Shown one piece after another: positions 4,253-54,989 of a stretch of 64,000 nucleotides of DNA. The position numbers and the translations under genes are program-made. Source of the stretch: Zootoca vivipara (Eukaryota); the NCBI RefSeq assembly GCF_963506605.1, contig NC_083281.1, positions 56,854,001-56,918,000 on the forward strand, read 5' to 3'. Under the pieces are notes generated by a model. It searched no databases and was not told the origin of the DNA. It worked only from the letters and a program-made list of their open reading frames with translations. The stretch's first letter is position 1. The number at the start of each line of letters is the position of its first letter.

Positions 4253-7200
4253 ATGTTGGGCTCTGGGTTCAAGGCTGAGCGCTTGCGAGTCAACCTACGT
4301 CTCGTCATCAATCGCCTCAAACTGTTGGAGAAAAAGAAAAGTGAGTGGACTTTTCTACCTAATTCCTTGACCTCATCACCAGAGTAGTGATTCAGGAGGT
4401 TTCTGGTAGTTGTGGTGTCCCACAACATCATGTGCAGGCTATAAATTAAAAGATGCTTAATTTATAGCCTGCACATGTTGTTTCAGTGTATCTGAAGAAG
4501 AGTGCATGCAACCGAAAGCTTATACCACTCAGCTGGTCTCTAAGATGCCACATAATTTTTTAAGTTGTTTTGGAAGGATTCTTCTAAAGATTTTCTTAGA
4601 TCATATAACTGTTTTGAAGACTTGATTCTTTTAAGGGAGTTTTTAGGTTTTTAAAAAGAGTCTTTTTAAGTATCTTTTAAAAGATTTGTTTTAATTTATT
4701 TTGACATGTCAGAGTGTAAATGTGGAATTGCTTGTGTATGTACTGTACTTCAAAGATGCCGAGAATTGTGGTCATTGGGATGGGGGTGGGGATTCTCTGA
4801 AGAGTTCTCAGGTTTGTGGACTTGTATCCAGTGCTAGCCCCACTATACTCATTGAATGGACATGGTTACTAAATTTCAATAGGTCTACTCGGAGTATAAC
4901 TTAGTTGGAGACAACCCACAGTCCTTCCTGGTGGAGCCCCGCTTTTTGCATACACAAACACCCCAGGCAGGGCCAGGGCAGGCTTGTGGGCCTCCCCTGC
5001 TGCCCCATGATAAACCCTTTTCTTGCAGCTGAGTTAGCCCAGAAGGCACGGAAGGAAATTGCTGACTACCTGTCTGCTGGCAAAGATGAGCGGGCTCGCA
5101 TCCGTGTGGAGCACATCATCCGGGAGGACTACTTGGTGGAGGCCATGGAGATCCTGGAGCTCTACTGTGACTTGCTTCTAGCACGCTTTGGCCTCATACA
5201 ATCTATGAAGTAAGGTCTTGGCCTATGGGGAAGAGGGTGCTGGGTGCCTGCCATGTGTCCCCTCCCCTCGGTCTGCTAGGTCTAGGACCTCTTTGTCCTC
5301 CTTGTCTCTTGCAACTACTTGCTCACCCTTGCCTTGCTTTGTGTCCCTTCAGGGAGCTGGACTCTGGCCTGGCAGAAGCTGTCTCCACCCTCATCTGGGC
5401 AGCCCCCCGACTGCAAGCGGAGGTGGCTGAGCTGAAAATGGTGAGTAGTGCCAGTTGTGTCTTGGCAGAGCAGCAAAGGACACTGCGTTTGCTGCTCAGC
5501 CTTCCTGGACATCAGGGGGCAGCAGTTAGGAAAACACTTTGATCTATCCTCACAGGATGCTCAGAGAACTTGGTGACTTTCTTGGTTGAGCTGGGAGTTT
5601 AGGTTGGCTCCAGTCTCCAAACCCCTGAACCTTTTGTCTAGGGCTGTTGCCATAGTTGCTGTACCCTGTCTTAAATAGAAGGGAGCCAGTGGTGCCTGGA
5701 CTCTATTTTGAGTGTGCCATTTCCATACTAGGTTGCTGACCAGCTGTGTGCCAAGTACAGCAAAGAGTATGGCAAGCTGTGCCGGAGCAACCAGATTGGG
5801 ACCGTCAATGACAGGGTGAGTGGAATGGGAAGGGCATCATGGGGGTGAGATGGCAGTAAGGCTCTCAGGAGCTACTAACCACAATGGCTATGACTTCCTC
5901 TGCTGTCAGAGGTTAGGTCCGCTCCTGAAGTCAGTTGCTGGGAATTGCAGGTGAAGAAGAGCACTGCTGCTGCTCCACTCAGGGGATTCTTGTTGGGGCA
6001 TTTGTTTGGCCACTGTGAGGACAGGATGCTGAGCTAGACAGGCTGATGGCCTGACCCAGCAGGCTGCCCTTATGGGAGGGAATGATATCAGTGCTTCATA
6101 AATATGGGTTGTTTGCAGCAGGAGGTCCTGTCTGTGGTGCTACAGCAGGTGAGGTAGAAACATCTTTTTTCTGGCTTGGATATCTCTTAGCTAAGTGTTC
6201 TTGACCTGCCCAACTCAGTGAAGAGCTCACTCTTCCCTCCCTCCCTTCCAGCTGATGCACAAGTTGAGCGTAGAGGCACCTCCCAAAATCCTAGTGGAGA
6301 GGTACCTGATTGAGATCGCAAAGAACTACAACGTGCCGTATGAGCCAGACTCTGTTGTCATGGTGAGTGACTGGGAGGTGTTCCACTCTCAATTCCCTCA
6401 TTAGCAGCTCCCTTTCCCACATGTGACATAAGCTTCTTCCTCTTCCCAGGCTGAGGCTCCCGCAGGCGTGGAAGCTGACCTGATTGATGTGGGATTTGTG
6501 GATGATACAAAGAAAGGTGGCCGTGGAGGTGGAGGTGGCGGTGGTTTCATGACCCCAATGGCTGGTCCTGATGGAGTTGTGCCAATGCCCATGCCCATGC
6601 CGTCTCCAGCTCCCCCTTTTTCATACCCACCTCCGAAGGGGCCAGTAAGTCCTATGTCTTGCTTGAAACAGGAGGGGAGTCTGTAAAGTTGGGCTTGGGG
6701 GTGGTAGTTGGGGAGGGGAGGGGAAGGAAAGGATAGCAGTCTACTGTGTGAGTTAGCATCTGAGCACACCTCACTAACTGCTGTGTGAACAGGGATTTCC
6801 AGCTGTTCTGGCTGGTATTGCCTATCTGATTCTGCCATTAGGAAGGGGTGCTGGTCTGACTTAACAATTTCTCCCTTTAGGAGCACTTCAACGGGCTACC
6901 GGTGGGCACCTACCAGCCTTTCACCAGCCTTCACCCACCACAGATTCCAGCAACACCTCCAACATACGAGTCTGTAAGTATTGCTGGTGAAAAAGAAAAG
7001 CTGAATTGCTGGGAGGGCAAGTCCTCTCTGCTGGGACTGTTGCTGTTCCTAGTCTAGTGCTGGGTATTGGCAGGCCTTCCCACTTGGACTGACTGAGGAG
7101 TTGCCATCCACTGGATTTGGGCTTGCAGCAGACTTCATGTACCTTTGATTTGATTTTGATTTATTGTATTTCTATGCTGCTTTTCATTCAAATGATCTCA

Positions 7201-9462
7201 AAGCAGCTTACAAACAATAAATAGCCATAACATAATGAAATATAATGGCATGTCGCAAATACAGCATACATCATATAAAATAATTAACAAATTATCAATA
7301 AAACAGTGGCAATCTATTAAAAAACTTAACAAAACAGCAACTAAAAATACAGTGGTCCCTCGACTTACAAACTTAATCCATTCCGAATGCACATTCGTAG
7401 GTCGAAAAGTTTGGAAGTCGAAACACGGTTTCCCATAGGAAAAAAAATATTCGGAAAAATTCGTAAGTCGAAAAAACCGCATTTAAAGCCACCAACGGTT
7501 TCCGTTCGGATGTAGAAAAATTTGTAAGCGTGCGGCCATTTGTCCCGTTCGTAAGTCAGAACCTACGGATGTCGAGTAATTCGTAAGTCGAGGGACTACT
7601 GTAAGCTAAACCTCACAATTACAGCAAGTCATGTGATTAACAAAAAAATGTGGCATTTAGAATCTATAAAACAATATTAAAATCATTAACAAAATAGCAA
7701 CTAAAAATATAAGCTAAGCACTAAGTTCATTGACACAGTCTCTCCACCCCCATGTCTCATAATCTTTCACTCTGTTCAGTTCATTAAAATACACATAAAT
7801 GTACATAATGCCAGATGTTGCACTGGCTGGAGTCCTCGAGTAGAGGGCCATGGTGGAGATGATGGGGCTCTCAGGCCTACCGCCATTGGTAAGGTGGATG
7901 TTGACTGCCTAGGCATTGTTGAGGAGAAACTTGCCTACATCACTATCAATAATCAGGAGTCCCATTCCCACTTGAGTCCCATTCCCACTTGAGGAAGTCC
8001 AAGACAAGCCTGTCCCTCTGGAGCAGCGAGTGGCAACTGCACTTGGTATACAGGCCGACCAGGAGGTCCAGGAGTGGCCCTGCAGCCTGTCCATCAGAAG
8101 CTGATCCAGCTTCTTCAGCCACACCTTGGTTGACATTGTGGTGGTAGAGGAGACGGCCACTGAGGGAAGTGAGCAGGGCAGCTACTTGAGTCTACCAGGC
8201 AGAAGGGAGGGGCTGTGATAAAGATGCCGAGGGAGCCTCAACATGATCTCAGCAGCCTGGATGAGCTTGCAGACGTATCACCTTGGTCTCAGAGTCCAGG
8301 CTGCTGCCCATGGAAGGCATGAGTGGAGGATGTTGGCCGGCAGCGATGGAGGATGAGATGGGGGGGGGGGGCTGAGCAGCTAGAGAGTGTGGAAATGGAG
8401 ATGCATCCACCTTCATGCCCTTGTGCTTGTTCAGCTGCTGCTCTCCAGACTTCTGTGGTTGCTGGTGGTGGTGGTTCATGTCAGGTTGAAGGTGAGGCTG
8501 CCAGTGATGGTGAAGAGCTACTGCATCGTCAGGCCATCCTTGGGGGACATAGCCAGGGGCGCTTGCTGATCAGGTAGTCAGCCATGCTGAGCGGCTCCCC
8601 CTCACCACCAGGCCAGGCTCACCACCACTGCTTCCTCCTCCTCCAGATCCCTCATTTCATCCTTCCTTCTGCTGTCTGGCAAGGCTGCGTGAAGAAGATG
8701 GGAACACCAGATACGGTGCTTCTGCTGTGCATGTAGGCCTCTAGGGAGTTGTCAGGTGGTGGTTCTGTGTGGGGCGCTCCATCCAAAGCCAGCTTTTTTC
8801 TGTTTCAGATTGATGACATGGGTGCTGACAAGGAATTGCCATCCCCACAGGTGACCGGTGAGTGCAGGGCCAGGCCGGAGGGGGTGGCTGTGGAGCTGGC
8901 AAGGCAGTGAGGAGGGAGGGAGGTGGTGATGTCAGGGGAAAGCTGGTGCTTGTGTTTATTGTTGGTCCTCTTCACTCTTGTGTTTGCTCAAGTTGCTGAG
9001 GTAAGCATGTGCCCGTGTGTGTGTGCCCGTGTGTTTGTGTGTGTGTTGGGGCAGAGAGCTTGGGCCCCTGTAGCAACTGGTAGGAGCTGCAAGGCTCAAC
9101 TGAAGTGCAGCAAGTGCTCGCTTCAGCAGCACATATACTAACTGTAGTACAGCAAAAAGAAGAATGGTCCTACCCATGCCCCTACTACTGTTAGGTAGAC
9201 TACTGTTTTTGCTGCCTTGAGCCTGCCCACTGGTTGTAACCAGTCACTCTTGTCTGCTGCAGGACCAGCCCCAAAACCACAGCCGAGGGGGAGGCCACCA
9301 GCTGCAGTTCCTAGTTCGGGCGATAATTTTGTGCTGCCAGAGTTGCCATCTGTGCCAGACACGCTGCCTGCCGCTTCTGCTGGTGCCAACACTTCTGCCT
9401 CAGAAGACATTGACTTTGATGACCTCTCTCGAAGGTTTGAGGAACTGAAGAAGAAAACTTAA
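4253..9462 (+). CDS. IST1: IST1 factor associated with ESCRT-III; coding exons 4253-4340, 5029-5209, 5353-5440, 5732-5815, 6252-6362, 6450-6644, 6881-6973, 8809-8857, 9263-9462
   Basis: MLGSGFKAERLRVNLRLVINRLKLLEKKK...ELAQKARKEIADYL...NFVLPELPSVP...DFDDLSRRFEELKKKT*. All introns are GT-AG with consistent phases, and the C-terminal MIT-interacting motifs are intact. Confidence 0.97.
4488..4560 (+). mobile_element. Degenerate Penelope-like fragment with hammerhead core
   Basis: GTAT-CTGAAGA-AGAGTGCATGCAACC-GAAA-GCTTATAC...GGTCTCTAAG; helix II is partly mismatched. Confidence 0.6.
7350..7601. mobile_element. Tc1/mariner (Tigger-like) MITE nested in the composite element
   Basis: TIRs CAGTGGTCCCTCGACTTAC / GTAAGTCGAGGGACTACTG, flanked by TA on both sides. 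Confidence 0.85.
7984..8136 (-). pseudogene. CDC42BPB (MRCK-beta) exon 1 fragment
   Basis: MSTKVWLKKLDQLLMD.../LLDLLVGLYTKCSCHSLLQRDRLVLDFLKW versus recalled MSAKVRLKKLEQLLLDG...[29 protein letters not shown]. Confidence 0.85.
8227..8343 (-). pseudogene. Cyclin L (CCNL2-like) exon 1 3' fragment
   Basis: LPANILH/MPSMGSSLDSETK..VIR/CKLIQAAEIMLRLPR versus recalled CCNL2 [43 protein letters not shown]. Confidence 0.85.
8404..8479 (-). pseudogene. USP7 exon 1 fragment
   Basis: MNHHHQQPQKSGEQQLNKHKGMKVD(A) versus recalled USP7 [26 protein letters not shown](A). Confidence 0.85.
8486..8585 (-). pseudogene. IMPDH (IMPDH1/2) first-coding-exon fragment
   Basis: MADYLIS../GYVP/KDGLTMQ*LFTITGSLTFN versus recalled IMPDH1 [33 protein letters not shown]; two frameshifts and one stop. 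Confidence 0.88.
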
Positions 9463-53473: not shown

Positions 53474-54214
53474 AGAAATATCAACAACCTCAGATATGCA
53501 GATGACACAACCTTGATGGCAGAAAGTGAGGAGGAATTAAAGAACCTTTTAATGAGGGTGAAAGAGGAGAGCGCAAAATATGGTCTGAAGCTCAACATCA
53601 AAAAAACTAAGATCATGGCCACTGGTCCCATCACCTCCTGGCAAATAGAAGGGGAAGAAATGGAGGCAGTGATAGATTTTACTTTCCTGGGCTCCTTGAT
53701 CACTGCAGATGGTGACAGCAGTCACAAAATTAAAAGACGCCTGCTTCTTGGGAGAAAAGCAATGACAAACCTAGACAACATCTTAAAAAGCAGAGACATC
53801 ACCTTGCCAACAAAGGTCCGTATAGTTAAAGCTATGGTTTTCCCAGTAGTGATGTATGGAAGTGAGATCTGGACCATAAAGAAGGCTGATCGCCGAAGAA
53901 TTGATGCTTTTGAATTTTGGTGCTGGAGGAGACTCTTGAGAGTCCCATGGACTGTAAGAAGATCAAACCTATCCATTCTGAAGGAAATCAGCCCCGAGTG
54001 CTCACTGGAAGGACAGATCCTGAAGCTGAGGCGCCAATACTTTGGCCACCTCATGAGAAGAGAAGACTCCCTGGAAAAGACCCTGATGTTGGGAAAGATG
54101 GAGGGCACAAGGAGAAGGGGACCACAGAGGACAAGATGGCTGGACAGTGTTCTCGAAGCTACAAATATGAGTTTGACCAAACTGCGGGAGGCAGTGGACA
54201 CGACTAAACAACAA
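53474..54214 (+). mobile_element. 5'-truncated BovB/RTE LINE (C-terminal part of reverse transcriptase)
   Basis: RNINNLRYADDTTLMAESEEELK...KLNIKKTKIMA...IDAFEFWCWRRLLRVPWT...LEKTLMLGK, with the tail CACGACTAAACAACAA. Confidence 0.93.
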
Positions 54215-54989
54215 GTTGTGTACGAAGGTCTGTTGTGTGTCCCAGTGTAGTGGAGGTGGCATCTACATAGAACACTTACATTCAGTTGCATAGCCTTTAG
54301 TAACCTGGTGCCTTCTAGGTGTTTTGGATGACATCTTTGGCTGTGATGGGAGCTGTAGTCCAAAACAACTGGAGGGCACCCAGTTGATGAAATCGGCAAT
54401 AGCAAGTGTTGCACTCTTCAAGCTCTTTAGAATTATTCCAGCCTGAGGGTTCTTCTGAAAACTCTTACGTGGACTCCTGGTGCTCCCTTAAAATCCCAGG
54501 TAAGGCAGAGGTGGAAAGATAGAACTCATTTTCTCATTCACTTATTTTAAAATATTCCTAGGTAATATTGACAGTCCCCTTCCTGGATCCAGAAAACCTC
54601 CCTGCCAGCAGAGTACTTACACATACCCACTGTCATAAGGTAGACATCCTCTTATCTATTTGACTGCTGAGAGACTTTTTGTTTTGGTAAGCCTATCTAG
54701 ACATATATAGTTACCTTTATATGTTTTAAGTTTTATTATTTTCAATCTGTGTTAAAATGGTTATGCTTTTATGCTTTTTAACATTGTTTTGAGTATATAT
54801 TAGTGTATCAGCTTCTCAGACTTAAGTGTACGTGTATATAATTTATATTGAAGAGTGGGAAGATATCAATCAACCCATCCTTTCCATACAGGCTATCTGC
54901 CTGTCCACGCTTATGCCATTCCTCTCAAAAGTCCCGTATGAAGCACATTCTAGTGAGTCGTACGTGTTTACTAAGAGAAAAAATCCCTT

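Follow-up and report, generated by a model that had tools for sequence, protein, structure and literature searches.

The window, a stretch of 64,000 nucleotides of the Zootoca vivipara genome, carries the gene IST1 on its plus strand (Pfam Ist1). The intron of this gene at 6975–8810 holds a retroposon copy on the minus strand, i.e. antisense to its host. The copy starts at 8644 or higher and ends near 7145, past the interval 7984–8585 given for it by an earlier, sequence-only reading. Its order from 5' to 3' is IMPDH1 exons, a USP7 exon, a 57-nt linker, part of a CCNL2 exon, a CDC42BPB exon, a 13-nt linker, a piece of OTUD1 and an AT-rich tail with a stem-loop.

All these pieces lie on the minus strand. 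An upstream exon of IMPDH1 (exon A) is represented by its 3' end (8587–8644), which is spliced to exon B (8486–8586, ATG at 8585), the parental GT-AG intron of 269 nt being missing; exon B stops at the parental GT donor, as seen in the window copy only. The USP7 ATG exon (8404–8485) starts 6 nt before the ATG, where a CAG precedes it in the parental UTR, and extends to the GT donor. The 57-nt linker (8345–8403) resembles USP7 intron 1 from +151 to +201 over its first 48 nt, the last 9 nt being without assignment. The CCNL2 piece (8227–8344) is the 3' 130 nt of the first coding exon, truncated at its 5' side in mid-exon and ending at the GT donor. The first exon of CDC42BPB (7984–8226, ATG at 8136) runs from a CAG in the 5' UTR to the GT donor, and a 17-nt tandem duplication present in the window copy only (7957–7990) covers its junction. 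The 13-nt linker (7954–7966) matches CDC42BPB intron 1 at +1668 (15-mer, one mismatch). The OTUD1 piece (7806–7953) is internal to the coding sequence, has three deletions found throughout the family (12, 28 and 7 nt) and is joined to the tail at a microhomology of 10 nt. This tail (7145–7805) ends in a stem-loop and short repeats of the AAATC type and is common to a sister repeat family; it measures about 410 nt without the MITE (7348–7603, without assigned strand, terminal inverted repeats of 24 nt), a later insertion that splits it. The window copy is old and dead, being frameshifted, antisense and interrupted by the MITE, and no function is implied.

Positions 8645–8790, which separate the IMPDH1 piece from the acceptor of IST1, may belong to the host intron or represent another captured piece; they have no match in the 9 kb upstream of IMPDH1. 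The best candidate for a target-site duplication, 7 of 8 nt at 8735, is too weak to be retained. Elsewhere in the window an ORF (53516–54250) appears to resemble the terminal part of a LINE reverse transcriptase of the RTE/BovB type.

The stretch in IST1 is one copy of a dispersed, 5'-truncated, non-autonomous retroposon family. A first search of the lizard's own genome with 7740–8810 gave 49 matching pieces, 40 of the 155 candidates being scored; their identity ranges from 64 to 91%, the window itself excepted. Further searches brought the candidate loci to 117, which correspond to at least 52 distinct loci, window counted, with two pairs that are likely local duplicates (L006/L007 and L043/L044). 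The 5' ends are staggered while the same 3' end is reached by 27 of the 52 loci, which is the pattern of a LINE-mobilised element. Copies differ from the consensus by a median of 0.155 substitutions per non-CpG site (range 0.055–0.23), CpG sites being mostly decayed; on an uncalibrated rate, this suggests that the family was active tens of millions of years ago. A tree of 33 of the 52 copies is star-like with two exceptions, a pair of duplicates and a younger clade that groups the window with L002, L003, L004 and L008 (support 0.999). One locus (L045:1322–1819) is a rearranged copy, in which part of the chain is inverted beside a forward part.

The element measures about 1.15–1.35 kb, and five host genes, two linkers and the AT-rich tail account for its consensus. 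Alu-like, VNTR, SINE-R or L1-derived domains and poly(A) are absent from this consensus, and no tRNA-like head was noticed by eye, the 5' part being made of protein-gene exons. A literature search conducted mostly outside subscription papers returned no description of the family; Repbase and Dfam lay outside this search, and an entry in a repeat library may exist.

All five parents are present in the assembly, their names being assigned by match to PDB sequences: IMPDH1 (L032/C10), USP7 (L052/C14), CCNL2 (L040/C6, 24 Mb from the window), CDC42BPB (L023/C1) and OTUD1 (L033/C12). Read-through between neighbouring genes is excluded, since these parents lie on five different contigs. The consensus is 93–96% identical to them in the coding parts and 83% in the CDC42BPB UTR. 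Exon B scores 116 against IMPDH1 and 64 against its paralog (L056). The five source regions are all CpG islands (GC 0.67–0.74, CpG observed/expected 0.74–1.02). Nonsynonymous and synonymous changes number 2 and 0 in USP7, 2 and 5 in CCNL2, 3 and 5 in CDC42BPB, and 2 and 10, plus three gaps, in OTUD1; these counts have too little power to order the captures. Copies of the family may be misannotated as pseudogenes of USP7, CCNL2, CDC42BPB or OTUD1.

The four pieces listed by the sequence-only reading (IMPDH1, USP7, CCNL2 and CDC42BPB) all stop exactly at a GT donor of their parent. In the 12 nt before and the 12 nt after the donor, identity to the parent is 10 versus 1 for IMPDH1 (window copy) and, in the family consensus, 12 versus 0 for USP7, 10 versus 2 for CCNL2 and 12 versus 3 for CDC42BPB. 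Among the 52 loci, none of the copies that span a junction has a GT after it (0/9 for USP7, 0/11 for CCNL2, 0/37 for CDC42BPB), and the parent's next exon is absent after the donor at all four junctions. That reading had thus correctly seen homology stop at the donor with no GT beyond, and the exon phases that it had given (2, 1, 0 and 1 in the same order) are those of the lizard genes. Its USP7 start 6 nt before the ATG also stands, immediately after a CAG in the parent. The end letters that it had given, GATG and CTCGG, are decayed forms of the family ends GAAG and CTCAG.

In the single copy that carries IMPDH1, the 269-nt intron between exons A and B is exactly removed. Across this splice exon A scores 49, versus 24 for the intron and a shuffle maximum of 43 (none of 2000 shuffles reach 49). 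This removal proves a spliced RNA stage, and with two spliced exons present (8644–8587 and 8586–8486) the IMPDH1 donor is at least the second one. The contention that every fragment ends at its parent's first donor was therefore overstated: it fails for IMPDH1, and it does not extend to the OTUD1 piece, missing from the earlier list, whose parent has no intron in the part examined and which has both its ends within a single unbroken stretch of coding sequence. The core observation is nevertheless real and far beyond chance.

The donor-side junctions are well supported as spliceosomal in origin because of the four exact donors, the exact intron loss and the zero shared bases at the IMPDH1–USP7 and CDC42BPB–linker joins. 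If the joins had instead arisen with no splicing, by microhomology-driven template switching between mRNAs or by capture at the DNA level, their coincidence with donors would be due to chance. Three junctions lie on the donor with 0–1 shared bases, and a rough estimate of the chance (one exon boundary per 140 nt; tolerance of 3 nt at three junctions and 10 nt at the fourth) is below 1e-6. This explanation is largely refuted for three of the four junctions and, taken as a whole, very improbable, even with microhomology joins elsewhere in the family and, in the same genome, another capture of the CDC42BPB UTR that is of DNA type. It may hold for the CCNL2 junction alone, where the two ends share 10 nt.

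This other capture concerns the CDC42BPB promoter and 5' UTR, of which about 450 nt occur in three copies (L098:1408–2334, L099:1426–1866 and L108, on C7, C7 and C3); two of these copies then run into the same MITE-like end. It looks like a DNA-level capture independent of the chain.

The right-hand sides are less uniform. The sequence-only reading expected each next piece to be UTR-like and to follow an AG in the next parent; aligned to the lizard genes, the left sides all end at GT (4/4) and an AG of the next gene precedes two of the four right-hand pieces, i.e. the starts of USP7 and CDC42BPB, the sequences after the USP7 and CDC42BPB donors being of another kind. The IMPDH1–USP7 junction is a clean splice: USP7 starts right after the CAG and no bases are shared. 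At the CCNL2–CDC42BPB junction, a CAG whose pyrimidine tract is strong (0.94) likewise precedes the CDC42BPB start, and the ends share 10 nt (6 nt with present-day CCNL2). This junction is ambiguous, a template switch fitting equally well.

The other two donors are followed by the linkers, and both of these look, from their sequence, like intron 1 of the same donor gene in sense orientation. The best match of the USP7 linker is USP7 intron 1 from +151 to +201, with a score of 45 that 3 of 2000 shuffles reach; the background maximum is 37 in 1099 windows and the next best score in the 59-kb USP7 region is 39. The linker is C-rich and of low complexity, and an unrelated window scores 39 versus 45. 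For the 13-nt linker, the 15-mer that starts it has its sole non-family match, with at most one mismatch, in CDC42BPB intron 1, in sense at +1668 (1.63 Mb searched on both strands, partly redundant). No AG stands directly before either intronic site today: there is a TG at USP7, and at CDC42BPB an AG is present 2 nt upstream of the site, where the pyrimidine tract is weak (0.41). Drift of about 15% could possibly have erased both AGs, an unproven assumption that is the weakest link of the model proposed below.

Since the linkers resemble intron 1, a DNA-level step is indicated, with the element sitting in that intron before splicing. The RNA-level, spliceosomal chain of the sequence-only reading thus survives for the donor sides, but a donor of one gene spliced onto an AG in exon 1 of the next is too simple. 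Nor does its rejection of DNA capture and template switching hold: a DNA-level insertion step is needed, the CCNL2–CDC42BPB ends share their microhomology and two other junctions of the family have no donor.

That reading comes closest to trans-splicing, in which host 5' exons would be joined at the RNA level to acceptors of the element transcript with no insertion in the host genes. Trans-splicing would produce the donor-exact ends and use the AG acceptors that lie inside the element for USP7 and CDC42BPB, and it agrees with parent introns that are free of the element. It would also have to occur as four rare events in series, and leaves unexplained the pieces of the donor's own intron 1 after two donors. 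Insertion in cis is favoured over it because the linkers match that intron in sense; we regard trans-splicing as quite improbable.

Two junctions of the family are of another type. The OTUD1 piece meets the tail in its 10-nt microhomology, and in four copies of the window's clade (L002, L003, L004 and L008) the head of another repeat family is fused to the chain within the CDC42BPB exon, where both have a 3-nt word in common, this SINE-head source having no donor. In these four copies the head had been considered as a sixth 5' piece and an independent test of the donor rule; it belongs to the other family and continues without a GT, so it is not a splice. Because the OTUD1–tail and SINE-head junctions are microhomology joins without donor, the family used both splicing and recombination or template switching.

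The repeat family that provided the head (L188–L216) is about 400 nt long, with a GC-rich head and an AT-rich body (326 candidates); its body is weakly similar to the tail of the chain. A sister family with the tail and another upstream part occupies 6 of 30 tail loci (L170, L173, L177, L180, L184 and L160). These share the start of the tail, and five of the six contain the whole tail; their upstream part is internally duplicated. The tail search gave 822 candidates.

At its 3' end the consensus has one predicted hairpin (−19.7 kcal/mol) followed by short repeats. Among the loci examined, 16 LINE ORF2 ends, selected by a motif that we take to be L2-type, have a similar tail layout with low alignment scores (31 at most). 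No autonomous partner LINE with this tail was found among these 16 ends, and Pfam identified no reverse transcriptase family in the one LINE remnant submitted to it. The partner would be of L2 type, judging from tail layout.

We searched for traces of the successive captures. Two own-genome searches for other IMPDH1-bearing copies (2 and 4 candidates) gave only the window, the parent, the paralog and one short unrelated match. In two older copies (L005 and L016) the CAG that precedes the USP7 start is preserved and IMPDH1 is absent, which is consistent with IMPDH1 having been added last. No family member has a longer CCNL2 exon (16/16 candidates scored) or a longer CDC42BPB UTR (33/33 scored), and no longer OTUD1 form was seen (40 of 47 scored). 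The three long-UTR CDC42BPB matches were discarded as intermediates, as they belong to the other capture. Copies that reach USP7 end within about 15 nt of its ATG, and the upstream flanks of L005, L016 and L019 have no significant match to the USP7 UTR or to IMPDH1. In the four parent introns of the assembly there is no source copy, only an antisense scrap of tail in USP7.

These data are probably best explained by serial exon trapping in cis, i.e. insertion in an intron, splicing and renewed retrotransposition. A non-autonomous, LINE-mobilised retroposon would have grown from 3' to 5' by four exon captures in series, an order that we infer from nesting only. At the origin, a piece of OTUD1 would have fused at the 10-nt microhomology, by reverse transcriptase template switch or recombination, to a pre-existing AT-rich tail with a stem-loop. 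A truncated copy would then have landed in sense in CDC42BPB intron 1, where a cryptic acceptor a short way upstream of the inserted copy would have received the first exon of the gene; retrotransposition of the resulting chimera would have followed. A copy in CCNL2 intron 1 would have gained the CCNL2 exon on the CAG of the CDC42BPB UTR. Another, truncated in the CCNL2 exon, would have inserted in USP7 intron 1, some 200 nt from its start, and acquired the USP7 exon through an intronic acceptor, the resulting form being the one that amplified. Last, a copy inserted in the intron that follows IMPDH1 exon B would have gained the spliced exons of that gene at the CAG preceding the USP7 ATG, and the window copy would descend from it.

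The identity of the pieces, their donor-exact ends, the removal of the intron, the dispersed truncated copies and the microhomologies are directly observed; the intronic source copies, the order from the OTUD1–tail fusion to the USP7 capture, the two intronic acceptors and the L2-type partner are inferred. In favour of insertion in cis are the four donor ends, the IMPDH1 intron loss and the IMPDH1–USP7 join without shared bases, together with the staggered 5' ends of the 52 loci, the place of the window in the younger clade and the CAG of L005 and L016. Against it count the absence of AG at the intronic sites, the low complexity of the USP7 linker, the lack of source copy, intermediates and partner LINE, the single copy behind IMPDH1 and the CCNL2–CDC42BPB microhomology; moreover, a source in the USP7 intron should sometimes yield more UTR than the 15 nt or so observed.

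One of these difficulties would disappear if a template switch came first: reverse transcriptase would jump from the element RNA to a host pre-mRNA and copy an exon with the start of its intron, and in a later transcript the captured donor, a strong one, would be spliced to the nearest AG, leaving the short linkers. The same donor ends and intronic linkers would result with no need for lost intronic source copies, and the family has two microhomology joins typical of switching. Such a route must nevertheless capture 1.7 kb of CDC42BPB intron and switch repeatedly to nuclear pre-mRNA; moreover, the IMPDH1 piece is already spliced with zero shared bases at its join, and unspliced intermediates are absent among the 52 loci. 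We judge it unlikely, although less so than trans-splicing, and retain serial trapping in cis, a model that can be tested directly in the genomes of other squamates through the two linkers of intronic origin.

A further reading is more speculative. The element may be a promoterless, stem-loop-tailed module that survives by inserting repeatedly into early introns of genes with CpG islands and exploiting the promoter and the donor of each host in turn, a possibility that we put forward tentatively and hold to be somewhat doubtful. If it were true, the body of the element would be a record of its past insertion sites. If, in addition, LINEs that recognise stem-loops cannot move ordinary mRNAs, such a relay would be a general route for amplifying host exons in reptiles, and many more chains would be expected.

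Exon trapping by retroposons is described mainly for the young, L1-driven SVAs of primates. In the lizard this route is apparently older, on another type of tail and used four times in series, and it would have spread coding sequence from five genes to 52 loci or more. Processed pseudogenes and chimeras made by reverse transcriptase template switching contain pieces of spliced mRNA and have microhomology joins. The OTUD1–tail and SINE-head joins are like those of the latter, but the lizard element is a multi-copy family with its own tail and most of its joins at donors, and its copies, unlike processed pseudogenes, are not single poly(A) retrocopies.

L2-dependent SINEs (UnaSINE with UnaL2; squamate Squam3) have a 3' end made of a stem-loop and short repeats and few target-site duplications (PMC7983390, PMC1636434). 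The lizard element has the same succession of stem-loop and short repeats and is likewise poor in target-site duplications; in contrast to these SINEs its 5' part consists of Pol II exons, with no tRNA-like head apparent, and it is about 1.15–1.35 kb long. Gibbon LAVA and PVA are composite non-autonomous retroposons said in PMC4859970 to have gained domains by splicing. These elements are L1-dependent and have a VNTR core around which 3' domains were acquired, whereas the lizard family placed 5' exons on a stem-loop tail.

The closest likeness is with SVA_F1 in human and pt_SVA_D6 in chimpanzee, which, as reported in PMC6139936, trapped MAST2's first exon and that of STK40 respectively, with extra upstream exons in some pt_SVA_D6 copies; according to the same paper the SVA acceptor is not always reconstructable. 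In both SVA subfamilies and in the lizard, splicing attached a GC-rich, donor-ended first exon to a non-autonomous retroposon, and the product amplified as a subfamily. The SVA_F1 source copy is missing from the human reference, as stated in PMC5753468, and the lizard assembly likewise has no source copy in the donor intron. The IMPDH1-bearing form was seen once, unlike the amplified chimera with its 52 loci. The lizard family is not a member of SVA/LAVA: it has no Alu-like, VNTR or SINE-R domain and no poly(A), its body is made only of host-gene pieces, and with its median of 0.155 it is far older. Three exon captures preceded its main amplification and the fourth came later, again unlike the two SVAs. 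Serial exon trapping would here be a known mechanism, of the SVA type, in a lizard, on a LINE-type stem-loop tail and repeated four times in series.
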